A DNA stretch of 64,000 bases from Eubacteriales bacterium (GTDB lineage Bacteria > Bacillota > Clostridia > Oscillospirales > CAG-272): contig JAZNJA010000057.1 in assembly GCA_045577755.1 (NCBI GenBank), positions 1,052 through 65,051 on the forward strand, read 5' to 3'. Below the pieces are notes generated by a model. The model was not told the origin of the DNA. It was given only the letters and a program-made list of their open reading frames with translations, and made no database searches. Numbering within the stretch: position 1 is the stretch's first letter; each line of letters starts with the position of its first letter. The translations under genes were made by a program, and so were the position numbers. Below are positions 15,684 to 28,120 of the stretch, one piece after another.

Positions 15684-18600
15684 TTACTCGTAGAGCTTCT
15701 TCATTCTCTCCAGTCTGTCGAACTTGGCGGCAGCGGAAGCCTCAGCCTTTGCGAACAGAGCCTCTGCGCGCTCGGGGTTGGAGGCGGCCAGACGTGCGTA
15801 GCGGTTCTCGGACTTGATGAACGCGGTGTAGTCACCGGTAGGAGTCTTGGAATCCACGGTCAGCTTGCCCGTCTCAAGAGTGGGGTTGTAGCGGAACAGA
15901 TGCCAGTAGCCTGCGTCAACAGCCTTCTTCATCTCGAGCTGGCAGTTCTGCATACCGCCCTTGACACCGTGCATCTCACAAGGAGCGTAACCGATGATCA
16001 GGGAAGGACCGTTGTAGGCCTCAGCCTCGGTCAGAGCCTTCAGGAGCTGGTTCATGTCAGAGCCCATAGCGACCTGAGCGACGTAGACGTAGCCGTAGGA
16101 CATAGCGATCTCAGCCAGGTTCTTCTTGCCGATGGCCTTACCGGCGGCGGCGAACTGAGCCACCTGACCGATGTTGGAAGCCTTGGAGGCCTGTCCACCG
16201 GTGTTGGAGTACACCTCGGTATCGAAGACGAAGACGTTGACGTTCTCGCCGGTAGCCAGGACGTGGTCCAGACCGCCGAAGCCGATGTCGTAAGCCCAAC
16301 CGTCACCACCGAAGATCCAGACGGACTTCTTGTTCAGGTACTCCTTCTCAGCCAGAATGGCGGGAGCCACGGGGCAACCCTCGGCGGCAGCCTTCTCCAG
16401 CTCGACGACCAGAGCCTTGGTAGCGGCCTCGTTAGCCTTACCGTCGTCCTTGGTGTCCAGGTAAGCCTTGGCGGCAGCCTTGAACTCGTCGGAAGCCTTG
16501 TCGGAGTTCATCATCTCCTCAACCTGAGCCATGAGTCTGTCGCGGACGGCCTTCTGACCGAGGGCGATACCCAGACCGTGCTCGGCGTTGTCCTCGAACA
16601 GGGAGTTTGCCCAAGCGGGACCCTTGCCGCTCTCGCGGTTGACGGTGTAAGGAGTTGCGGGGGAGGAACCGCCCCAGATGGAGGAGCAACCGGTAGCGTT
16701 GGAGATATACATTCTCTCGCCGAACAGCTGGGTGATCAGGCGAGCGTAAGAGGTCTCGGCACAGCCTGCGCAGGAGCCGGAGAACTCAAGCAGGGGCTGC
16801 TTGAACTGAGAGCCCTTGACGGTGTTGTCAGCGAAGGGCAGAGCCTTGCTGGAGACGTTGGCCACACAGTAGTCGAAGGAAGCCTGCTGAGCGGACTCCT
16901 GAGCCTGGGGAACCATGTAGATAGCCATATCCTCGGGCTTGACCTTCTCGCCTGCGGCGGCGGCCTTCTTCTCGGCGGTGGCGTTGACAGGGCAAGCCTT
17001 CACGCAGAGGGTACAGCCCATACAATCCAGAGGAGAAACGGCGATGGTGAACTTGTAGCCCTCGCAGCCCTTACCGATCATCTTAGCGGTGAACTTGGTG
17101 GACTCGGGAGCGTTTGCGGCCTCCTCGGCATCCAGAGCGTAGGGACGGATGGCGGCGTGAGGGCAGACGAAGGAGCAGTTGTTACACTGAGCGCACTTGG
17201 TGGGATTCCAGGTAGGAACCATAACGGCCACACCGCGCTTCTCGAAGGCAGCGGAGCCCTGGGGGAAGGTACCGTCCACGTAGTCCACGAATGCGGAAAC
17301 GGGCAGGCTGTCACCCTTCATAGCGTTGACGGGGGTCACCACGTTGTTGACGAAGGCACCCAGATCAGCGCGGTCGCAGGTCTTGGTGGCGGCGGCCTCG
17401 TCGTCAGCGCAGGTAGCCCAAGCGGCGGGAACCTCAACGGCGTGGTATGCGTTGGCACCGGCGTCGATAGCGGCATGGTTCAGGTCAACGATGGCCTGGC
17501 CCTTCTTCAGGTAGGACTTGGTAGCCATGTACTTCATGTACTCCACAGCCTCGGCGGCGGGCAGGATAGCGGCCAGAGCGAAGAATGCGGACTGAAGCAC
17601 GGTGTTCTTGACCTTGGCGTTACCCAGGTCGCGAGCCAGCTTGGTAGCGTTGATGGTGTAGAACTTGATGTCGTTCTTGGCGATATACTGCTTCACAGCG
17701 GAAGGCAGGTTGGTGTCCAGCTCCTCATCGGACCAGTTGCAGTCCAGAAGGAAGGTACCGCGGGGCTTGATGTCCTGCACGATGTCGTAGCGGGAGATGT
17801 AAGCCTGGTTGTGGCAAGCCACGAAGTCAGCCTTATTGATGTAGTAAGGAGACTTGATGGGGGTGTCACCGAAGCGCAGGTGGGAGATGGTGATACCGTT
17901 GGTCTTCTTGGAGTCATACTGGAAGTAAGCCTGAATGTACTTGTCAGTATGGTCACCGATGATCTTGATGGAGTTCTTGTTGGCACCGACGGTACCGTCG
18001 CCGCCCAGACCCCAGAACTTGCAGGCCTTGGTTCCGGCAGGAGCGGTGTCGGGAGCCACAGTCTCCTCGAGGGAGCAATTGGTCACGTCATCCACGATAC
18101 CAATGGTGAAGTTCGCCTTGGGCTCATCCTTGGCCAGGTTGGCGAAAACAGCGAAGATGGAGGAAGGAGGAGTATCCTTGGAGCCCAGACCGTAACGGCC
18201 GCCGACAACCTTCTTCTGGACACCGTGGGTAGCCAGAGCGGTAACGACGTCGAGGTACAGAGGCTCACCCAGAGAACCGGGCTCCTTGGTACGGTCGAGG
18301 ACGGCGATCTTCTCGCAGGTTGCGGGAATAGCCTCGATGAGCTTGTCAGCGCAGAAGGGACGGTACAGGCGGACCTTGATCAGACCGACCTTCTCACCCT
18401 GAGCCATCATGTAGTCGATGACCTCCTCGGCCACGTCGCAGATGGAGCCCATAGCGATCATGACGCGGTCCGCGTCGGGAGCGCCGTAGTAGTTGAAGAG
18501 CTTGTAGTCGGTGCCCAGCTTGGCGTTGACCTTGTCCATGTACTCCTCGACGATGGCGGGCAAAGCGTCGTAGTAGCGGTTGCAGGCCTCGCGGTTCTGG

Positions 18601-19283
18601 AAGAAGATATCACCGTTCTGAGCGGAGCCGCGGAGCACGGGATGCTCGGGGTTCAGAGCGCGGGAGCGGAATGCGGCCACAGCGTCCATATCCACCATCT
18701 CAGCCAGGTCGGCGAAGTCCCAGACCTCGATCTTCTGGATCTCGTGAGAGGTACGGAAGCCGTCGAAGAAGTTCAGGAAGGGAACGCGGCCCTTGATGGT
18801 AGCCAGGTGAGCGACGGCACCCAGGTCCATAACCTCCTGAGGGTTGGTCTCAGCCAGCATAGCAAAACCGGTCTGACGGCAGGCGTAGACGTCGGAGTGG
18901 TCACCGAAGATATTCAGAGCGTGAGAAGCCACGCAACGGGCGGACACGTGGAAGACGCAGGGGAGAAGCTCACCGGCGATCTTGTACATGTTGGGGATCA
19001 TCAGCAGAAGACCCTGGGATGCGGTGTAGGTGGTGGTCAGCGCACCTGCGTTCAGGGAGCCGTGGACAGTACCGGCGGCGCCTGCCTCGGATTCCATCTC
19101 CATCACGTTGACGGTGGTACCGAAGATGTTCTTGAGTCCCTGTGCAGACCACTGGTCTACCCAGTCAGCCATGGGGCTGGAGGGGGTAATCGGGTAAATG
19201 CCGGCGACTTCGGTGAAAGCGTAGCTTACCGTAGCGGCTGCCTGGTTACCGTCCATGGACACTTTTTTTCTCATGATTGCCAT
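15684..19283 (-). CDS. nifJ: pyruvate:ferredoxin (flavodoxin) oxidoreductase
   Basis: The ORF track gives 15684..19325. The preferred start is ATG 19283, 11 nt after AGGAGG. MDGNQAAATVSYAF, two 4Fe-4S motifs (CAQCNNCSFVCP, CMGCTLCVKACP) and the TPP site GGDGWAYDIGFGGLDH are present. Codon usage looks strongly biased toward preferred codons. Confidence 0.96.
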   Translation of the reverse strand: MAIMRKKVSMDGNQAAATVSYAFTEVAGIYPITPSSPMADWVDQWSAQGLKNIFGTTVNVMEMESEAGAAGTVHGSLNAGALTTTYTASQGLLLMIPNMYKIAGELLPCVFHVSARCVASHALNIFGDHSDVYACRQTGFAMLAETNPQEVMDLGAVAHLATIKGRVPFLNFFDGFRTSHEIQKIEVWDFADLAEMVDMDAVAAFRSRALNPEHPVLRGSAQNGDIFFQNREACNRYYDALPAIVEEYMDKVNAKLGTDYKLFNYYGAPDADRVMIAMGSICDVAEEVIDYMMAQGEKVGLIKVRLYRPFCADKLIEAIPATCEKIAVLDRTKEPGSLGEPLYLDVVTALATHGVQKKVVGGRYGLGSKDTPPSSIFAVFANLAKDEPKANFTIGIVDDVTNCSLEETVAPDTAPAGTKACKFWGLGGDGTVGANKNSIKIIGDHTDKYIQAYFQYDSKKTNGITISHLRFGDTPIKSPYYINKADFVACHNQAYISRYDIVQDIKPRGTFLLDCNWSDEELDTNLPSAVKQYIAKNDIKFYTINATKLARDLGNAKVKNTVLQSAFFALAAILPAAEAVEYMKYMATKSYLKKGQAIVDLNHAAIDAGANAYHAVEVPAAWATCADDEAAATKTCDRADLGAFVNNVVTPVNAMKGDSLPVSAFVDYVDGTFPQGSAAFEKRGVAVMVPTWNPTKCAQCNNCSFVCPHAAIRPYALDAEEAANAPESTKFTAKMIGKGCEGYKFTIAVSPLDCMGCTLCVKACPVNATAEKKAAAAGEKVKPEDMAIYMVPQAQESAQQASFDYCVANVSSKALPFADNTVKGSQFKQPLLEFSGSCAGCAETSYARLITQLFGERMYISNATGCSSIWGGSSPATPYTVNRESGKGPAWANSLFEDNAEHGLGIALGQKAVRDRLMAQVEEMMNSDKASDEFKAAAKAYLDTKDDGKANEAATKALVVELEKAAAEGCPVAPAILAEKEYLNKKSVWIFGGDGWAYDIGFGGLDHVLATGENVNVFVFDTEVYSNTGGQASKASNIGQVAQFAAAGKAIGKKNLAEIAMSYGYVYVAQVAMGSDMNQLLKALTEAEAYNGPSLIIGYAPCEMHGVKGGMQNCQLEMKKAVDAGYWHLFRYNPTLETGKLTVDSKTPTGDYTAFIKSENRYARLAASNPERAEALFAKAEASAAAKFDRLERMKKLYE

Positions 19284-19464
19284 TTTAGGAAAATCCTCCT
19301 TGAAAATTTTTCCTCGCGGGAGCAAAACCGCGAGACAAATTTGCTCACTATATATAATAGCATACTTTTCGCAAAAAGTAAAGGGTTTTTGTGAAATTTC
19401 AAGGATTTGGTGAAAAAAAGTTTACATAAAGTTATATATATGCGGAATTTCATTGCCGCGGTAC

Positions 19465-19546: not shown

Positions 19547-21442
19547 ATGAGCGAAAAAAACATCACAAGGACCTCGGTAGCGGTGATCGGCGCGGGGCAC
19601 GCGGGCTGTGAGGCGGCGCTGGCCGCGGCGCGCATGGGTGTGGACACGGTGCTCTTTACCCTGTCTCTGGACCAGATCGCCAATATGCCTTGCAATCCCT
19701 CCATAGGAGGCACGGCCAAGGGGCACCTGGTCTATGAGATCGACGCCCTGGGCGGTGAAATGGGCAAATGCGCCGACGCGGTGACTCTTCAGAGCCGCAC
19801 CCTCAATCTGGGTAAGGGTGCCGCCGTCCACTCCAAGCGGGTGCAGGCGGATCGGGTGGCCTACCACGTCCGCATGAAGCATACACTGGAGCAGACCGCA
19901 AACCTCCGCGTGGTGCAGGCCGAGATCACGGATATTATTGAAAAAATCGACCAAAATACCGGCAAAAGCAAGGGCGTTTCCGCTGTCATCACCCGCCTCG
20001 GCGAGCGTTGGGACTGCGACGCCGTCATCATTGCCACGGGTACCTACCCCGAGGCAAAAATTTTTGTCGGAGATAAGAATTTTGAGTCGGGACCGGACGG
20101 TTCCCTGCCCTCGAAGGGGTTGTCTGCTTCGCTGTCGGCTATGGGCATTCGTCTCATGCGCTTCAAGACGGGCACCCCCGCAAGAGTCAAGCGGGAGACC
20201 ATAGATCTGTCTGTGCTGGAGGTCCAGCCCGGGGAGGAGGGTGCCATTCCCTTCTCTACACAAACTGACAAAAACACCTACCTGCAGGGTGAGCAGATCC
20301 CCTGCCACATCGTCTACACCAACGCCGAGACCCATCGCGTCATCCATGAGAACATCCACAGAAGTGCCATGTATTCGGGTCAAATCACGGGTACCGGCCC
20401 CCGCTACTGTCCCTCCATTGAGGATAAGATCGTCCGCTTTGCCGATAAGGAGAGGCACCAGCTCTTCGTGGAGCCTATGGGCGAGGATACCGAGGAGATG
20501 TACGTTCAGGGCTTCTCCACCTCCCTCCCCACCGACGTACAATGGCAGATGATCCGATCCCTCAAGGGTTTTGAAAACGCCGAGATCATGCGGTACGCCT
20601 ACGCCATTGAGTACGATTGCGCTGATCCCACCCAGCTGAACGCCACGCTGGAGTTCAAGGATCATTCCAACCTGTACGGTGCAGGCCAGTTCAACGGCAC
20701 CTCGGGCTATGAGGAGGCCGCCGCCCAGGGTCTGGTGGCGGGCATCAACGCCGCCCTGACGGCTCTCGGTAAGGATAAGATCACCCTACCGCGCTCCGGT
20801 AGCTACATCGGCACTCTGATCGACGATCTCGTCACCAAGGGCACGAATGAGCCTTACCGCATGATGACATCACGGTCGGAATTCCGCCTGATCCTGCGCC
20901 AGGACAACGCGGATCTTCGTCTGACCCCCATTGGTCATGCCTGCGGACTTGTCTCCGAGGAGCGTTATCAGGCCTTTTTAAGAAAAAAAGAAGCAGAAGA
21001 AGCCGAAAAAGCCCGTCTGGAGGCTACTCATCTTGGTCCCGACACCGTGAATCCCATACTGGACCGTCTGGAGCTCGAGCCCGCAAAATCCGGTGTTTCT
21101 TTGTGTGATCTTTTGAGACGTCCCCAGATCACCTATGACGATCTTACCCCCCTGGATCCCCGCCGTCCTTATTTGTCTCCGGAGATCATAAAAACCGTAG
21201 AGACCGATGTCAAGTACGCAGGCTATATCAAGCGCGAGCTGGCCGAGGTGGAACGGCAAAGAAAGCTGGAGGGAAAGTATATTCCCGCAGATATGGATTA
21301 CAGCAGGATCAAGGGTCTTCGCTTGGAGGCAACCCAAAAGCTGACAAAATATCGCCCCGCCACGGTGGGACAGGCCTCCCGCATATCCGGTGTCAGTCCC
21401 GCGGATATTTCTGTCCTACTCCTATATTTGGGCATTAAATAA
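19547..21442 (+). CDS. mnmG: tRNA uridine 5-carboxymethylaminomethyl modification enzyme MnmG (GidA)
   Basis: FAD-binding VIGAGHAGCEAALAAARMG, GPRYCPSIEDK, 631 aa, followed by rsmG. Confidence 0.96.
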   Translation: MSEKNITRTSVAVIGAGHAGCEAALAAARMGVDTVLFTLSLDQIANMPCNPSIGGTAKGHLVYEIDALGGEMGKCADAVTLQSRTLNLGKGAAVHSKRVQADRVAYHVRMKHTLEQTANLRVVQAEITDIIEKIDQNTGKSKGVSAVITRLGERWDCDAVIIATGTYPEAKIFVGDKNFESGPDGSLPSKGLSASLSAMGIRLMRFKTGTPARVKRETIDLSVLEVQPGEEGAIPFSTQTDKNTYLQGEQIPCHIVYTNAETHRVIHENIHRSAMYSGQITGTGPRYCPSIEDKIVRFADKERHQLFVEPMGEDTEEMYVQGFSTSLPTDVQWQMIRSLKGFENAEIMRYAYAIEYDCADPTQLNATLEFKDHSNLYGAGQFNGTSGYEEAAAQGLVAGINAALTALGKDKITLPRSGSYIGTLIDDLVTKGTNEPYRMMTSRSEFRLILRQDNADLRLTPIGHACGLVSEERYQAFLRKKEAEEAEKARLEATHLGPDTVNPILDRLELEPAKSGVSLCDLLRRPQITYDDLTPLDPRRPYLSPEIIKTVETDVKYAGYIKRELAEVERQRKLEGKYIPADMDYSRIKGLRLEATQKLTKYRPATVGQASRISGVSPADISVLLLYLGIK

Positions 21443-21457
21443 GAGGATAAGTTGTTT

Positions 21458-22180
21458 ATGAGTCAATTCAAAGACCTATTTACGGATATTTTTCAAAAGA
21501 ATAGTCTGAATGAGTTCATTTCCGACGAAATCATCGGGAAATTTCAAGAGCTGACTGATATTATGATCGCAACCAATGCCGTCATGAATATCACTGCCCT
21601 GACAACGGTTGAGAAGATCATTCCCCTTCATTACGCGGATTGTGCCAAGATCGCCTCACTCATTCCCTATGGCGCGCGGGTAGCAGATATCGGTTGCGGC
21701 GGCGGATTTCCGATCCTGCCTTTAGCGATTTTGCGTCCCGATCTTCAACTCGTGGGTATTGACAGTACCGATAAGAAGATCAAGTACGTTCAGAAGACCG
21801 CCGATCACCTTGCCCTTGCCGTGCGGGCAATCAGCGGCCGCGCCGAGGACCTGGCTAAAAGCGCGGAGCATCGGGATGCTTATGACGTAGCGGTCAGTCG
21901 TGCGGTTGCCCGCCTGAATATTCTGGATGAGCTTTGTATGCCCTTTGTCAAGGTTAACGGCAGTTTCATTGCCATGAAGGGGTCCGCCGGTTTTGATGAA
22001 TTGGAGGAAGCGAAAAACGGTATCACAAGATTAGGCGGAAGCGTCACGGCATTGACAAACTACGATCTGTACACCAACGAAGCCAGCGAGCAACGAACCG
22101 TCATTCAGATTCAAAAAATATCAGTGACCCCCAAGGAGTTTCCTCGTGGGTTTGGTGTTATGAAAAAAAGACCCCTTTGA
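21458..22180 (+). CDS. rsmG: 16S rRNA (guanine527-N7)-methyltransferase RsmG (GidB)
   Basis: The ORF track begins at TTG 21452, and ATG 21458 is more likely. SAM motif DIGCGGGFPILPLAI, with the conserved position after mnmG. Confidence 0.9.
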   Translation: MSQFKDLFTDIFQKNSLNEFISDEIIGKFQELTDIMIATNAVMNITALTTVEKIIPLHYADCAKIASLIPYGARVADIGCGGGFPILPLAILRPDLQLVGIDSTDKKIKYVQKTADHLALAVRAISGRAEDLAKSAEHRDAYDVAVSRAVARLNILDELCMPFVKVNGSFIAMKGSAGFDELEEAKNGITRLGGSVTALTNYDLYTNEASEQRTVIQIQKISVTPKEFPRGFGVMKKRPL

Positions 22181-22194
22181 TTTCTAAATAACTA

Positions 22195-22447
22195 TATTTC
22201 ACGTGAAACATTTTTCACGTGAAATATTTTTGTTTCACGTGAAACATTTTTTCCCTTTATATTTTGTTTCACGTGAAACATTTCTTTCCTTTATATTTTG
22301 TTTCACGTGAAACATTTTATCCCTATATTTTGCTTCGTGTGAGAATGTTCTTCTTCACAATTGTTTCACGTGAAACAATGATAATATCTAAGAATTTTGG
22401 CTTATCATTCCACGTTTATATGCTTCTTTCATGTTTCACGTGAAACA
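22195..22447. promoter_or_regulatory. tandem parS array: 5 perfect TGTTTCACGTGAAACA palindromes plus 2 near-perfect and 1-2 degenerate copies
   Basis: The perfect 16-mers are at 22231-22246, 22265-22280, 22299-22314, 22362-22377 and 22432-22447. Near-perfect copies are TATTTCACGTGAAACA at 22195-22210 and TTTTTCACGTGAAATA at 22211-22226. A degenerate copy TGCTTCGTGTGAGAAT lies at 22331-22346. Three of the perfect copies sit in a 34-bp tandem unit. Confidence 0.9.
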
Positions 22448-22544
22448 AATATAAAATGTTTTCAAACATTTCTGAAAAACCCTTGAAAATTTGATTTCGA
22501 TGTGCTATACTATATACATTCCATTACAAAAAGGAGGAAAACTT

Positions 22545-23312
22545 TTGGGAACCATTATTTCCTTTGCTAATCAAAAGGGCGGCGTGGGTAAGACCACTTC
22601 TGCCGTGAATATAGCCGCGTCCCTTGGTGTCTTGGGTTATAAAACCTTACTTGTGGACCTTGATCCCCAGGGTAATGCCACCAGCGGAGTTGGTGTCGCA
22701 AAAAAAGGCCTAAAAAGAACAACGAAGGACGTGCTTCTTGGCCTTGCTGACGCTCATGAGACCATTATTCAGACTGAGTTTCAGAATTTATCTTTGATTC
22801 CTTCCAACACGTCCCTGGCAGGCACGGAATTTGAGCTTATGCAGGGTGATACTCCCGAACCCTGGGCTTGCATGAAAAATGCATTTTCTGTGATCAAGAA
22901 GGAGTACGACTATATTATTGTGGATTGTCCCCCTTCTCTCGGTATGCTGACCGTCAACTCCTTGACTGCCAGCGACGGCGTTATCGTCCCTATGCAGTGC
23001 GAGTTTTATGCTCTGGAAGGCTTAGCCCAGCTCATGGTCACGATTTCCAAGATCCGAGAGCATTACAACAATAAGCTTTCGATCACGGGTATTCTTCTGA
23101 CCATGTACACCAACCGTCTTCTTCTTACGCAGCAGGTAAAAAACGAGTTGAAGAAGCACTACGCCGGCAAACTGTTTGATACCCACATTTCCCGTGGCGT
23201 CAAGTTGTCCGAGGCTCCCGGCTTTGGTCTGCCTGTGTATTATCACGACAAGAAGAGCAAGGGTGCCGCTGAGTATCTTTCGGTGGCTAATGAGCTCGCT
23301 ATGAGAATCTGA
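22545..23312 (+). CDS. parA: chromosome partitioning ATPase ParA/Soj
   Basis: The ORF track gives 22491..23312. The preferred start is TTG 22545, 7 nt after AGGAGG (MGTIISFANQKGGVGKTT, a deviant Walker A). VDLDPQGNAT and DCPPSLG are present. Confidence 0.93.
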   Translation: MGTIISFANQKGGVGKTTSAVNIAASLGVLGYKTLLVDLDPQGNATSGVGVAKKGLKRTTKDVLLGLADAHETIIQTEFQNLSLIPSNTSLAGTEFELMQGDTPEPWACMKNAFSVIKKEYDYIIVDCPPSLGMLTVNSLTASDGVIVPMQCEFYALEGLAQLMVTISKIREHYNNKLSITGILLTMYTNRLLLTQQVKNELKKHYAGKLFDTHISRGVKLSEAPGFGLPVYYHDKKSKGAAEYLSVANELAMRI

Positions 23313-23330
23313 TAGGAGGTATTTCGGAAA

Positions 23331-24218
23331 ATGGCAAAGAAACAAGGCTTAGGCCGGGATTTTTACGAGCTCTTGGACGATAATATCGCCGAAAATGCCT
23401 CAAACAACGCAAGTTTCATCAAAATCTCCCGTATTTCACCCCGCGCTGATCAGCCCCGCAAAAATTTTGACGAGAATGCTCTGCAGGCTCTGGCTGATTC
23501 GATCCGTGTTCACGGTGTGATACAGCCCATCGCTGTGCGCGAGCTGTTCGATCTCAGCGGTAATTATGAGATCATTGCCGGCGAGCGCAGATGGCGTGCC
23601 GCAAAAATGGCCGGTCTCGACGAGATTCCCGCAATTATACTGACCGGTGATGATCTGAAGATTGCCGAAATGTCCCTCATTGAGAATCTACAGAGACAGG
23701 ATCTGAATCCCATTGAAGAGGCTTTCGCCTATAAGATCCTCATTGAGCGTTTTGATCTCACTCAGGAGGAGGTTGCCAGACAGGTGGGTAAGAGCCGCTC
23801 GGCAATTGCCAATATGCTTCGTCTTCTGGAGCTCCCCGACGAGATCACTTCCCTTGTAGAGGACGGAAAACTCTCCATGGGTCATGCCCGCGCTATTCTC
23901 GGTCTGATCAAGGAAGAGGATATGCTCCCCCTGGCCACCGCCATTATGGAGAAGGATCTCTCGGTCCGTGAGACAGAAAACGCCGTACGCAAGCTGAATA
24001 TACCCCCCTCAGACGTCATTGAAGACGATGAGGACAGTATTCTGATCCAGAGACGGATCTACATGAAGGATCTGGAGGACCGCGCCAGAACCGCCCTCGG
24101 CCGTAAGGTAAAGATCAACGAGACCGGCCGCAAGAAGACGGTGGAGCTCACCTTTGAGGATGACAAGGACCTCGAGAATCTTCTGAAAACTCTTGTCGGA
24201 CAAGACATTTTTGCATAA
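23331..24218 (+). CDS. parB: chromosome partitioning protein ParB/Spo0J
   Basis: ParB box IIAGERRWRAAKMAG and the HTH region EEVARQVGKSRSAIANMLRLL, immediately downstream of parA. Confidence 0.93.
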   Translation: MAKKQGLGRDFYELLDDNIAENASNNASFIKISRISPRADQPRKNFDENALQALADSIRVHGVIQPIAVRELFDLSGNYEIIAGERRWRAAKMAGLDEIPAIILTGDDLKIAEMSLIENLQRQDLNPIEEAFAYKILIERFDLTQEEVARQVGKSRSAIANMLRLLELPDEITSLVEDGKLSMGHARAILGLIKEEDMLPLATAIMEKDLSVRETENAVRKLNIPPSDVIEDDEDSILIQRRIYMKDLEDRARTALGRKVKINETGRKKTVELTFEDDKDLENLLKTLVGQDIFA

Positions 24219-24249
24219 TTATCTACCAATAGGAAAGGAAACACAAGCT

Positions 24250-25530
24250 ATGCTGGATATCAAATATATTCGTGAAAACCCCGAGGAGGTCATTGCCCGC
24301 CTTCTGATCAAGGGCAAGGACGCCCGCGCTGATATTGAGGCCATTCTGGCTCTGGACGGTGAGAGACGCACTCTCATCACCGAGACCGAGGCTATTAAGG
24401 CCGAGCAGAACAAGATGAACAAGCTCATTCCTCAGTACAAGAAGGAGGGCAAGGACGTTGCCCCCATCTTCGCTGAGATGAAGGCTATGTCGAACAAGAC
24501 CAAGGAGATCGATGAGAAGCTGAAGGCTGTTGAGGTCAAGCAGACTGACATCATGCTTGGTCTGCCCAATCTGCCCGATCCTGATCTGCTTCCCGGCGGT
24601 AAGGAGAACAATCAGCCCCTCCGCTACTGGGGCGAGCCCAGACAGTTTGATTTTGAACCTAAGCATCACGTGGATCTCTGCACCGACCTGGGACTGATCG
24701 ACTACGACCGCGGCACCAAGCTGGCCGGCTCCGGATTCTGGATCTACAGAGGCATGGGCGCCCGTCTGGAGTGGGCTCTGCTCAACTACTTTATCGACAC
24801 CCACCTGGCCGATGGCTACGAGCTGATCCTCCCTCCGCACATGCTGGAGTATGAGTGCGGTCTGACCGCAGGCCAGTTCCCCAAGTTTGCCGATGAGGTC
24901 TACAAGATCGAGAACCCCACCGACAACCGTATGCATTACATGCTCCCCACCGCTGAGGCCGCTCTGGCGTCCCTGTACCGCAACGAGATCCTGACCGAGG
25001 CTGATCTGCCCAAGAAGCTTGTCTCCTACACCCCCTGCTTCCGCCGTGAGGCAGGCTCCTACCGCTCCGACGAGCGCGGTATGGTCCGCGGCCATCAGTT
25101 CAATAAGGTGGAGATGTTCCAATTCACCCTGCCTGAGCAGTCCGACGCCGCTTTTGACGAGCTGGTAGCCAAGGCTGAGGCTCTGGTGGCGGGTCTGGGA
25201 TTCCACTTCCGCACCGTCAAGTTGGCCGCTGAGGATTGCTCCGCCTCCATGGCCCGTACCTACGATATCGAGATCCAGATTCCCTCTATGAACGGCTACA
25301 AGGAGGTCTCCTCTGTCTCCAACGCCCGTGACTACCAGGCTCGCCGCGGTATGATGCGGGTTAAGAGAGCCAACGGTAAGACCGAGTATGTCCATACGCT
25401 CAACGGATCGGGTCTGGCTACCAGCCGTATTCTTCCCGCTCTGGTGGAGCAGAATCAGAACGCCGACGGCAGCATCAACGTTCCCGACGCGCTGAAGAAG
25501 TATCTGGGCGTGGACGTGATCCGCAAATAA
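24250..25530 (+). CDS. serS: serine--tRNA ligase
   Basis: The ORF track gives 24193..25530. The preferred start is ATG 24250 (MLDIKYIRENPEEV). There is a coiled-coil N-terminal arm, and class II motifs FRREAGS and LNGSGLATSR. Confidence 0.95.
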   Translation: MLDIKYIRENPEEVIARLLIKGKDARADIEAILALDGERRTLITETEAIKAEQNKMNKLIPQYKKEGKDVAPIFAEMKAMSNKTKEIDEKLKAVEVKQTDIMLGLPNLPDPDLLPGGKENNQPLRYWGEPRQFDFEPKHHVDLCTDLGLIDYDRGTKLAGSGFWIYRGMGARLEWALLNYFIDTHLADGYELILPPHMLEYECGLTAGQFPKFADEVYKIENPTDNRMHYMLPTAEAALASLYRNEILTEADLPKKLVSYTPCFRREAGSYRSDERGMVRGHQFNKVEMFQFTLPEQSDAAFDELVAKAEALVAGLGFHFRTVKLAAEDCSASMARTYDIEIQIPSMNGYKEVSSVSNARDYQARRGMMRVKRANGKTEYVHTLNGSGLATSRILPALVEQNQNADGSINVPDALKKYLGVDVIRK

Positions 25531-25545
25531 TCGGGAGGTACCCCC

Positions 25546-26241
25546 ATGTGGTTGCATAAATTGCAGTTTCTGTTTTTTGAGACATCGGGGGAGCCATCCT
25601 TGCTGGAGGAGCTGTGGGCCTATTTTGAGGGTAAGTATTTTTCGGTGGATACCGGAAGATACGAGCATATCAATATCGGCTCCGGCTCTCTCATCACCCT
25701 TCAGCGGGTGGTTTTGGGTATTTTCATCGGTGTCATCATTGCCGCCGGTATTGCCTGCTATGACAAAAACCGTCTGGGTGCTCTGGTGCGCTCCATTGTG
25801 AAGGAGCAGTGTCTCTGGCCCGACAAGGCTAAGACTCTCTCAGAGTTGGGCTTTGCCCGCAACGGTGGCGTCAAGGCCAGTCTGCGCAGTCCCAATAAGC
25901 TGGGCCGTGTAGTCCACTGTGTGGAAAAAGAGACCTACGACAAACAGGTCGAGGCCGCCAGGCAAGCCTACGTTGCCGAGCACGGCAATGAGGAGGGATT
26001 TTTCATGCCCTCCTATCGCTTCAATTTTGAGACGGACCATTTCTATATCCCTGACGAGGAACATTACCGCGCCGAGATTCGCTTTGACGAAAAGGGATCG
26101 GGCTGGCGTGCCTTCATTCTGGTGGTCATCATCTCGGTGGTGTCGGCCTCTCTGGTCTGCTTCCTGCTTCCCGATATGATCCAGCTTGTGGATAACATGA
26201 TTGGTATTCTCACCGAAAACGACCGATTTATGACCGGTTGA
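25546..26241 (+). CDS. hypothetical membrane protein (2 predicted TM segments)
   Basis: GGGAGG lies 7 nt upstream of the ATG. Hydrophobic segments are VVLGIFIGVIIAAGIACY and AFILVVIISVVSASLVCFLL. I recognised no family. Confidence 0.55.
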   Translation: MWLHKLQFLFFETSGEPSLLEELWAYFEGKYFSVDTGRYEHINIGSGSLITLQRVVLGIFIGVIIAAGIACYDKNRLGALVRSIVKEQCLWPDKAKTLSELGFARNGGVKASLRSPNKLGRVVHCVEKETYDKQVEAARQAYVAEHGNEEGFFMPSYRFNFETDHFYIPDEEHYRAEIRFDEKGSGWRAFILVVIISVVSASLVCFLLPDMIQLVDNMIGILTENDRFMTG

Positions 26242-26289
26242 TCATATTTTCGTTTAGTTTGCTTAACTTACATGGAAGGGAGACGTATC

Positions 26290-26994
26290 ATGAGTCAATC
26301 GATTCCCACCAAGCGTCCCTTAATCGGTCTGGTCTCCTCCAGATCCGGGGACAATAAAACCATTCCGCAGCGCTACATGAACGCCGTCTGGAACGCGGGA
26401 GGTCTACCTGTGGTGATGCCTTATACCACCGATCCCCAAAACCTTGCGGAATATGCCGAGATCTTTGACGGCTTCCTGTTCTCCGGCGGCGTGGACGTGG
26501 ATCCCGCCAAGTACGGAGAAATGGTCGAGACTGACCTGGTGGAGATCGACAACGTCCGCGATGAGTTTGAAGAGGCACTTTTCAAGGCCATCTACCCCAC
26601 CGGCAAGCCCATCCTGGGGATTTGCCGCGGTATTCAGTCCATCAACGTCTGGCTGGGCGGTACCCTGTATCAGGATATAGACGGCCATCGACAGGACGTC
26701 GGGGGAGACGTGCGTACCCATCCCATTGAGATCCGCGAGGGGAGCATGCTCCACCGCATCTGCAAAAAGACCTCGGTCATGGTCAATACCTTCCATCATC
26801 AGGCTGTCAAGGCCCTCGCGCCTGCTTTGACGTCGGATGCCGTTAGCCCCGATGGCTTTATCGAGGCCGCCCACGAGGAGGGCCATCGCTTCCTGTTCGC
26901 CGTTCAGTTCCATCCTGAGTTCTACTGGCAAAAGGAAGACGACGACCATTCCCTCGCCATCTTTCGGGCGTTCCTGGATGCCTGCAAATCCTGA
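26290..26994 (+). CDS. class I glutamine amidotransferase-like peptidase C26 (gamma-glutamyl-GABA hydrolase family)
   Basis: The ORF track gives 26272..26994, and ATG 26290 is preferred. Nucleophile elbow GICRGIQSINV, HHQAV and FAVQFHPE are present. Confidence 0.85.
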   Translation: MSQSIPTKRPLIGLVSSRSGDNKTIPQRYMNAVWNAGGLPVVMPYTTDPQNLAEYAEIFDGFLFSGGVDVDPAKYGEMVETDLVEIDNVRDEFEEALFKAIYPTGKPILGICRGIQSINVWLGGTLYQDIDGHRQDVGGDVRTHPIEIREGSMLHRICKKTSVMVNTFHHQAVKALAPALTSDAVSPDGFIEAAHEEGHRFLFAVQFHPEFYWQKEDDDHSLAIFRAFLDACKS

Positions 26995-27001
26995 CGTAAG
27001 T

Positions 27002-27047
27002 AAAAAAGCCTTACGGAACAAGTACGTTCCGTAAGGCTGATTTTTTT
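27002..27047. terminator. bidirectional intrinsic terminator
   Basis: AAAAAAGCCTTACGGAAC-aagta-CGTTCCGTAAGGCTgaTTTTTTT, between convergent genes. Confidence 0.85.
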
Positions 27048-27051
27048 GATA

Positions 27052-27663
27052 TCAGAGGGCCCGCTTCATGGGACGCAGAGTTCCGGGATCCAACGCCTTA
27101 CAGAGCAGCACAGCGCAGATACCCGTGAGAATCGCGTTGGGGATCATATAACCGGCGTTATAGACCAGGGAGTAGATCCAGGGATTCATGCCCTCAGGGG
27201 CATAGCTGCCCCAGAGAATGCCTCCCGACAGCACTGAGGACAGGTAGCGAAGGATACAGACCGTCACCGCGCCCACACCGTAGCCGGTCAGGCGGAGGAC
27301 CTGCTTCTTCTGTCCGAAGGGCTTCGCGAAGAGAGGAGCGATACCAATGACGGTGAAGGCGATGACGTAATCCAGAAGGACACACAGAACAAACGCCCAC
27401 CAGGTGTTGGCAGGGGGAGGATACCACCCCATGGCGATCTGCAGGACCGAAAAGACCAGTCCGGCGCCCATGCCCCAAACCGCTCCATGACGGTAGGCAT
27501 AGTAGACGATGGGCAGCATGCCGATGGTGATGGAGCCTCCCGCGGGGAAGAGAATGGCGTTGTAGGGCGCCAGGGCACAGACGTAATCCACCACCCAGGC
27601 CAGCGCCAGCATCATGGCTCCCTCAACCAGGGCCAGGAGAAATTTTTTGTGGTTCACTTTCAA
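27052..27663 (-). CDS. thiT: energy-coupling-factor thiamine transporter S component ThiT
   Basis: A multi-TM protein directly downstream of a TPP riboswitch. The ORF-track start (27696) lies inside the riboswitch terminator stem. The preferred start is TTG 27663, 7 nt after GGAGG (27675-27671). Confidence 0.8.
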   Translation of the reverse strand: MKVNHKKFLLALVEGAMMLALAWVVDYVCALAPYNAILFPAGGSITIGMLPIVYYAYRHGAVWGMGAGLVFSVLQIAMGWYPPPANTWWAFVLCVLLDYVIAFTVIGIAPLFAKPFGQKKQVLRLTGYGVGAVTVCILRYLSSVLSGGILWGSYAPEGMNPWIYSLVYNAGYMIPNAILTGICAVLLCKALDPGTLRPMKRAL

Positions 27664-27675
27664 AAAACCACCTCC

Positions 27676-27716
27676 AAAATAAAAATTCGACCGCACGGAA
27701 AATCTCCGCGTGGTCT
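27676..27716 (-). terminator. riboswitch expression-platform terminator
   Basis: The minus-strand RNA reads GACCACGCGGA-gauu-UUCCGUGCGGUC followed by GAAUUUUUAUUUU. Confidence 0.7.
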
Positions 27717-27775
27717 CATGAATGGTGGTTATGAATGGCGATTGCGCACTCTCCGATTCAAGACATTCAAAATAC

Positions 27776-27876
27776 TTCCTACGCCGGTATTATCCGTATC
27801 AGGTTAAGGGTTCGCGCTATCGGCGCATCTCAGCCGACCGTCCGGGTCGTCACCCGGGGCCAGCACCCCTGATTTT
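27776..27876 (-). promoter_or_regulatory. TPP (THI-box) riboswitch aptamer
   Basis: The minus strand reads TCAGGGGTGCTGGCC...GGCTGAGATGCGCC...GCGAACCCTTAACCTGATACGGATAATACCGGCGTAGGAA. This carries the conserved GGGGUGC, CUGAGA, ACCUGAU and AUAAUACC.GCGUAGGAA cores. Confidence 0.92.
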
Positions 27877-27921
27877 TCGTGCCGGAAAGACCTTTCAGAG
27901 GTCCTTCCGTGTCGTACCGTT

Positions 27922-27950
27922 ATTATACTATAAAATTTTCGCCTTGTCAA
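27922..27950 (-). promoter_or_regulatory. consensus promoter TTGACA-17-TATAAT driving the riboswitch-thiT unit
   Basis: On the minus strand, TTGACA is the reverse complement of 27945-27950 and TATAAT is the reverse complement of 27922-27927. The spacer is 17 nt. Confidence 0.7.
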
Positions 27951-28035
27951 GTGCCCTTTGTGCGTCGGAGCATAAATAATGGATAATTTTTTCTTTTTTG
28001 TACGGGTGGTTTTTGTTGATTCTACGAAAAATCGA

Positions 28036-28063
28036 TTGACAAAACCGAAAAATATGGTATAAT
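28036..28063 (+). promoter_or_regulatory. candidate promoter TTGACA-16-(TGg)TATAAT
   Basis: TTGACA at 28036-28041, and an extended -10 TGgTATAAT ending at 28063, upstream of the 28121 gene. Confidence 0.6.
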
Positions 28064-28120
28064 GGTAGTAAACCGCCATGATCGCGTGACGGTATCCAAA
28101 TTCCAAAGGAGACAGACCGA

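Follow-up and report, generated by a model that had tools for sequence, protein, structure and literature searches.

The window (the whole 64,000-nucleotide stretch analyzed here) has a chromosomal gene context, mnmG-rsmG-parAB-serS...dnaA-dnaN-recF-gyrB. The gene mnmG (19547-21442, plus strand) neighbors rsmG (21452-22180, plus strand; Pfam GidB, E 1.5e-38), which encodes the 16S rRNA m7G527 methyltransferase and lies directly upstream of an array of parS sites. On the other side of the array, parA (soj; 22545-23312, plus strand; Pfam AAA_31, E 9.8e-63, with CbiA and MipZ) reads from a TTG start codon behind a GGAGG ribosome-binding site, and this start aligns with the MGKII... start of relatives. 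It is followed by parB (spo0J; 23331-24218, plus strand; Pfam ParB_N and HTH_ParB) and serS. Farther along are dnaA (30091-31542, plus strand), then dnaN, recF and gyrB. A DnaA-box scan found a candidate oriC, an unstranded cluster of boxes between dnaA and dnaN (31621-32041), and a second cluster at 37234-37568. The array lies 7.6 kb from the start of dnaA and 9.2 kb from the first DnaA-box cluster, which makes it origin-proximal. The rsmG-parA spacer that houses it spans 364 bp, has 28% G+C inside a 58% G+C genome, and contains only the array and a strong promoter.

A motif scan recovered five perfect copies of the 16-mer TGTTTCACGTGAAACA within 217 bp (starts at 22231, 22265, 22299, 22362 and 22432), exactly as the preliminary description had counted and placed them. 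The two copies with one or two mismatches that it had also reported are parS-a (TATTTCACGTGAAACA, 22195-22210, one mismatch), which begins 14 bp past the rsmG stop codon, and parS-b (TTTTTCACGTGAAATA, 22211-22226, two mismatches). Seven sites, to which no strand is assigned, thus occupy 253 bp (22195-22447). The perfect sites parS-1 (22231-22246), parS-2 (22265-22280) and parS-3 (22299-22314) each open one of three 34-bp units. They are followed by the perfect sites parS-4 (22362-22377) and parS-5 (22432-22447), the latter 35 bp upstream of the -35 element of the parAB promoter. All seven fit the parS consensus tGTTNCACGTGAAACa, a 16-bp palindrome, as do the sites of chromosomal ParABS centromeres. 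In the whole window, eight matches had at most three mismatches; the expectation from dinucleotide shuffles is 0.13, and none of 100 shuffles attained eight.

Tandem Repeats Finder placed a repeat with a period of 34 bp and 4.1 copies at 22197-22336, bearing out the description of three sites in a 34-bp tandem unit. Each unit consists of parS plus an 18-nt T-rich spacer, and the spacers differ at a few positions. The T-rich 18-mer had been presented as a conserved element with a consensus. The consensus is roughly right; spacers share no sequence between species, and the 18-mer is therefore a co-amplified spacer and not a functional element. We also considered it as the site of a second protein or as a repeated promoter and rejected both, since its TTCACG-18-TATATT matches are weak (9/12) and the spacer is conserved in no other species. 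A possible decayed unit, TGCTTCGTGTGAGAAT (22331-22346, unstranded, six mismatches), is in phase with the array and is also present in strains L112 and L113. Matches of this quality are expected by chance 0.5-1 times per 364 bp, however, so the earlier mention of decayed copies holds only tentatively, for this one relic. All hits from an Rfam scan of the rsmG-parA spacer were hairpin look-alikes that scored far under the gathering thresholds, which rules out a known structured RNA in the spacer.

The proteins encoded beside the array match its sites. ParB carries the CTP box GERRWRA, and IIAGERRWRAAK aligns with the GERRxRA box of the ParB structures 7bnk and 6t1f. Its best matches in the PDB are the ParB proteins of Myxococcus xanthus, Caulobacter and Bacillus subtilis (E about 1e-54). 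The four specificity positions read R-M-E-G (from GKSRS...ANMLR...LLELP...MGHAR), with the arginine and glycine equivalent to R173 and G201 of Caulobacter. The combination RTAG marks parS binders and QKKR marks binders of Noc sites, the RXXG class is highly specific for parS, and methionine and glutamate are tolerated at positions 179 and 184 (PMC7383237). By these residues, the window's ParB falls into the parS-specific RXXG class. ParA has the KGGVGKT motif, providing a Walker-type partner encoded next to parB. Consensus sites, a canonical parAB pair and parS-type ParB residues uphold the identification of the palindrome as the Firmicute parS consensus.

The assembly that contains the window is a short-read MAG of an uncultured gut bacterium, in 253 contigs (3.45 Mb, 93.5% complete). 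A genome-wide motif search found no parS at two or fewer mismatches outside the array in these 3.45 Mb, in keeping with the earlier notion of a single center, although a further parS could conceivably lie in the small part of the genome missing from the assembly. The 12-mer core TTTCACGTGAAA occurs seven times in the assembly, always inside the array, and the five matches with three mismatches are scattered and chance-like. The window's parB was the single ParB_N hit genome-wide, making it the only ParB-family gene of the genome, and an SMC gene is present.

We consider it probable (at roughly 85%) that the array is the centromere of the chromosome and the genome's only place for ParB loading, and that it changes by the duplication and loss of units. 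By analogy with studied ParB proteins, each 16-bp palindrome would take one ParB dimer through the helix-turn-helix, and binding to parS would shut the CTP-bound dimer into a clamp. The clamp would slide to the flanking DNA and free the site for the next dimer. With seven sites inside 253 bp, at a distance of about 9 kb from oriC, the array would thereby supply a single dense ParB focus. ParA would then move this focus, and SMC would be loaded on it. Units would be gained or lost via slippage or unequal exchange. Selection retains the sites and a centre-to-centre spacing of ~34-38 bp, whereas the sequence of the spacers is free to change. In vitro, B. subtilis ParB condenses DNA with a force that increases with the number of tandem parS sites (PMC8299390).

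Relatives identified through their ParB are uncultured Clostridia/Oscillospiraceae MAGs from ruminant guts. Twenty-one of the 24 genomes of the same genus have 1-7 parS sites, which almost always fall together within a few hundred bp, and over 50 independent MAGs contain the array as such. The compact array is therefore genus-wide and not peculiar to one genome. We analyzed 33 arrays (the window plus loci L028-L060, with ParB identity down to 52%), all of them immediately upstream of parA. Comparing the rsmG-parA spacer among them revealed copy-number variation, with 2-11 sites per array. Such variation could also mean that one or two sites suffice and that the extra copies are products of neutral slippage in a drifting, microsatellite-like array, rather than parts of a strong loading center tuned by selection. 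A one-unit difference between two strains of the window's species and the lineage-specific nature of freshly amplified, identical units are consistent with this alternative. Furthermore, a single parS is enough for segregation in several species, P. aeruginosa among them (PMC7333895), so copies past one or two may add little.

We nonetheless regard neutral copies as a fairly unlikely explanation, for the sites of these arrays bear the marks of purifying selection. Among 149 sites in the 33 arrays, variation was confined to positions 1/16 and 5/12, where the published consensus is itself degenerate, and the remaining twelve were at least 96% invariant. In older arrays all sites remain intact although the spacers have decayed completely. 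For example, loci L041-L045 have all four sites (4/4) and the promoter identical, yet their spacers cannot be aligned, a footprint of selection on the sites. Centre-to-centre distances, with identical spacers counted once, form a sharp peak at 34-38 bp and a minor mode at 24-25 bp, and the 34-38-bp spacing is maintained despite spacer turnover. In addition, every array (33/33) holds at least two sites, with a median of four.

The same 33 arrays show an asymmetry between half-sites. Off-consensus bases are two-fold commoner in the half-site on the rsmG side than in the one on the parA side (95 vs 53). Counted by genome, the rsmG-side excess is 19 vs 4 with 10 ties, among genomes that are phylogenetically non-independent, which calls for caution. 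Such a bias is unexpected for a symmetric ParB dimer and could reflect strand-biased mutation or shared ancestry. Another same-genus locus (L027, genome G019) has overlapping parS sites with a 14-bp period (TGTTTCACGTGAAAATGTTTCACGTGAAAATG...); because adjacent sites share bases, all of them could not be occupied simultaneously.

The reading of the array as a centromere that evolves by whole units draws on unit turnover observed both between and within species. Perfect unit amplifications have occurred independently with lengths of 25 bp (11 copies in L028 and 5 in L029), 34 bp (6 copies in L033), 35 bp (3 copies in L050) and 63 bp (2 copies in L046). The window's own 34-bp unit is common to no other genome of the genus. 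A sister species whose ParB is 93% identical also has T-rich spacers, about 32 bp in length and probably homologous to those of the window. Neither exact-protein look-ups with the window's ParB and ParA nor two exact searches of metagenome contigs at the DNA level, one for a unique segment of the array and one for the promoter, gave a match. Five independent assemblies (L112-L116) were reached via near-identical ParB sequences from a large protein search. One of them, L112, is a Logan assembly of the same species (ParB 99% identical), made from a different run with a different assembler, and it reproduces all the sites, spacers and flanks with scattered SNPs. It has two 34-bp units, versus three in the window, and a spacer of 330 bp versus 364 bp. 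By spacer similarity, the unit missing in L112 appears to be the first (22231-22264). The one-unit deficit in L112 and the independent amplifications in relatives support the proposal that the 34-bp period arose by tandem duplication, and the pattern of repeats indicates that the array grows and shrinks by the duplication and loss of whole parS-plus-spacer units.

Repeats of this kind raise the concern that the copy number in the window is an assembly artefact in which the 34-bp repeat was collapsed or expanded. The sequence comes from a fragmented short-read MAG, L112 differs by a unit, and arrays lie at contig ends in G014, G016 and L113 (the L113 contig terminates within the repeat), indicating that such repeats break assemblies. 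However, the window's three units are mutually distinct, and the longest exact repeat (30 bp) is shorter than the usual assembly k-mers and any read. L112 matches the window in all but one unit and the SNPs, three independent assemblies of the sister species (L114-L116) are mutually identical, and the array recurs in the more than 50 MAGs mentioned above. An artefact is thus improbable, and the array is real, its exact copy number being the one given by the assembly. The difference between L112 and the window is either strain variation of one unit or a one-unit mis-assembly in either assembly.

Across the order, the 201 genomes analyzed mostly have 1-4 parS sites, with 2 as the most frequent number, and these sites usually lie kilobases from one another. 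Two genomes of the same order but another family have many more, with 28 perfect copies of TGTTCCACGTGGAACA in G112 and 15 in G057 (loci L109 and L110 are listed with them). We rejected these as larger tandem arrays, as their sites are dispersed over many kilobases and contigs, which is the opposite strategy to a compact array. Within the order, the compact single array is therefore one layout among several, and it characterizes the window's clade. A Lachnospiraceae genome (L077) likewise has five parS sites within 380 bp, and the Bacilli loci examined carry one parS in parB and a second some 1.9 kb upstream.

The position of the array between two genes also points to possible roles in transcription. 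The abutting sites parS-a and parS-b, together with a following T-run, form a terminator-like hairpin (22194-22232, plus strand) with a 15-bp stem, a 4-nt loop and a T-rich tail (RNA fold of -20.9 kcal/mol, z = -6.8). In about one third of the relatives the first site pair folds into a similar hairpin (-20 to -33 kcal/mol) with a T-rich tail, and in some other relatives a classical GC hairpin and T-run separate sites 1 and 2. The recurrence of one or the other hairpin suggests that a terminator is required at this spot. From its position, the parS-a/parS-b hairpin and T-run would end rsmG transcription, and we put the chance that the rsmG terminator is built from parS copies at a little below even. 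Tempering this idea, base pairing in RNA is expected of any two parS palindromes, and the fold is thus not specific.

At the other end of the array, the best promoter-scan hit (10/12 matches plus TG) is the predicted parAB promoter at 22483-22511 (plus strand), which has TTGAAA and TATACT separated by 17 nt and a TGn extended -10 (TGcTATACT). The pattern TTGnnn-17-TGnTAnnnT is present in 33/33 related loci. The location of parS-5 is such that ParB occupancy could feed back on parAB transcription. There is precedent in P. aeruginosa, in which the promoter-proximal parS3 and parS4 repress their genes, but Spo0J of B. subtilis does not regulate the genes beside its parS sites (PMC7022226). Among the relatives, the proximal parS lies 29-46 bp from the -35 in 22/33 loci and 70 to 303 bp away in some others. 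The lack of regulation by Spo0J and these long distances weaken the idea, and autoregulation of parAB through the array is a tentative possibility, somewhat doubtful on the present evidence. An inverted repeat, AAATGTTT-TC-AAACATTT, sits between the proximal parS and the -35 (22454-22471). It resembles a parS reduced to its outer arms, with no CACGTG core, and is kept in strains L112 and L113 and in the sister species (L114-L116).

Could the palindromes be mainly a transcriptional device, an rsmG terminator and/or parAB operator with segregation as a secondary role? The array fills the rsmG-parA spacer exactly, with the hairpin and T-run at its 5' end and a site 35 bp from the -35 at the other. 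However, the ParB consensus is held at twelve specific positions over 149 copies, far beyond what a terminator needs, and some relatives have a separate classical terminator inside the array. The array also holds the genome's only parS sites, in a genome in which parA, parB and smc are all kept. We consequently view a primarily transcriptional role as very improbable.

The preliminary description also held that the array replaces the noc gene. The genome has a single ParB-family gene and is thus without Noc, and the window has no match to the NBS palindrome ATTTCCCGGGAAAT at two or fewer mismatches. This rules out Noc sites interleaved in the array and sets it apart from Noc/NBS or mixed parS/NBS arrays. 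In a sister group, however, a Noc-type paralogue (specificity residues Q-K-R-R) lies between rsmG and the parS array at locus L054, and was seen only in that group. Its coexistence with the array between rsmG and parA means that the array is no replacement of noc. Rather, noc is absent from the window's clade and the array alone is kept. The paralogue spans 1083-1910 of L054 and is also found in L057-L059; additional parS sites precede it and directly follow parB. Although this paralogue beside an array might suggest a ligand other than ParB, such as a Noc-type protein or another regulator, the genome's one ParB-family gene with parS-type residues, the window without an NBS motif and the spacer without an Rfam family at threshold make such a ligand hardly conceivable for the window.

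An array serving as the only ParB-loading place would be an ordinary bacterial centromere in compact form, and comparison with known systems supports this view. The Spo0J/Soj/parS system of B. subtilis has exactly the same 16-bp consensus (TGTTNCACGTGAAACA) and shares with this locus a ParB that bears the CTP motif and parS-type residues, an adjoining ParA, SMC and an origin-proximal location beside rsmG. B. subtilis has about ten parS sites dispersed over the origin domain, including one within spo0J, and its noc gene separates rsmG from soj. Here, in contrast, all the sites fall within 253 bp upstream of parA, parB has none and noc is absent. The statement of the preliminary description that parS sites are usually single and scattered proved overstated: according to published work, parS sites generally cluster near the origin, and dense clusters have been described (PMC3597684, PMC7333895, PMC3899335). 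Bacterial genomes have from 1 to about 23 parS sites, and the reason for their clustering near the origin has been posed as an open question (PMC7333895; PMC10197239).

Another chromosomal comparison is with M. xanthus, whose 22 parS sites occupy 3 kb of DNA some 4 kb upstream of parA (PMC3899335). Both chromosomes use one dense multi-parS cluster near parAB as a centromere, here as the probable reading. The M. xanthus cluster has a density of ~1 site per 140 bp over 3 kb and is away from the promoter, whereas the window has ~1 per 36 bp in head-to-tail units that abut the parAB promoter, with a lower copy number that varies by species and strain. The tandem organization is reminiscent of F-plasmid sopC, in which a 43-bp unit is repeated 12 times in tandem and SopB binds the 16-bp inverted repeat of every unit (PMC3597684). 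Like sopC, the array is made of direct repeats that arose from unit duplication and carry one 16-bp palindrome each for a helix-turn-helix protein of the ParB family. Its head-to-tail arrangement (34-bp period, 4.1 copies) extends to 11 perfect units in relatives. However, sopC is plasmid-borne, downstream of sopB, with a 43-bp period, another palindrome (TGGGACCACGGTCCCA) and a SopB-type protein. The array is chromosomal and upstream of parA, has a 34-bp period with three units still recognisably tandem, and is built on canonical parS and not on TGGGACCACGGTCCCA.

Precedent for transcriptional effects comes from P. aeruginosa, whose parS1-4 form an origin-proximal cluster (PMC4368675; PMC7022226) with intergenic parS3 and parS4 just upstream of genes. 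Unlike the array, these four sites spread over kilobases, six more lie elsewhere and none is in the parAB promoter. The layout of the window, with repeats, promoter and parA-parB in cis, recalls type Ib plasmid partition loci. In these loci, centromere repeats upstream of the par operon double as the operator. By analogy, the shared layout suggests that assembly of the partition complex and autoregulation could be coupled. In type Ib loci, however, the ParB proteins are small and of the ribbon-helix-helix type and the direct repeats are short, whereas here the ParB is a helix-turn-helix, CTPase-type chromosomal protein and the sites are canonical parS. A speculative and, in our view, unlikely synthesis would treat the clade's only centromere as a fast-evolving tandem "satellite" fused to the parAB promoter in a type Ib-plasmid-like manner. 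ParB loading would then set parAB transcription, copy number would be an evolvable gain control, and the 34-38-bp spacing and rsmG-side bias would reflect higher-order ParB assembly rather than independent sites.

We found no description in the literature of short-period natural chromosomal parS arrays as such. Their mechanism and kind are already known, however, and the array is not a new system. The evolution of parS number and clustering and the control of chromosomal ParA and ParB levels have been named as open questions (PMC7333895; PMC13371061). The single-locus centromeres of the clade form a natural series, with 2-11 copies, varied unit lengths and a copy number that differs even from strain to strain, all within one promoter context. 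This series could be used to study dose effects of parS on ParB loading and parAB expression. The array also marks the origin region in fragmented MAGs, with the caveat that such arrays can break or be miscounted in short-read assemblies.

We also noted several features of gene order and origin structure around the locus. The genes mnmG, rsmG, parA, parB, serS and dnaA are all on the plus strand (19547-31542), so that parAB is transcribed toward the presumed origin. The orientation of soj-spo0J in B. subtilis is the opposite; here parAB points to dnaA and not away from it. Upstream of mnmG, in the usual place of mnmE, jag, yidC and rnpA, is a minus-strand gene for pyruvate:ferredoxin oxidoreductase (15684-19325). 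The window has 29 DnaA boxes at one or fewer mismatches, against 8.7 expected, and its two DnaA-box clusters are 5.6 kb apart. A triad of boxes (TTTTCCACA-n-TGTGGAAAA-n-TGTGGAAAA) occurs once after dnaA (31621-31669) and twice after gyrB (37234-37280 and 37456-37488), and the cumulative GC skew has its minimum near 40-42 kb of the window. Together, the two clusters and the skew minimum may indicate a bipartite or displaced oriC.
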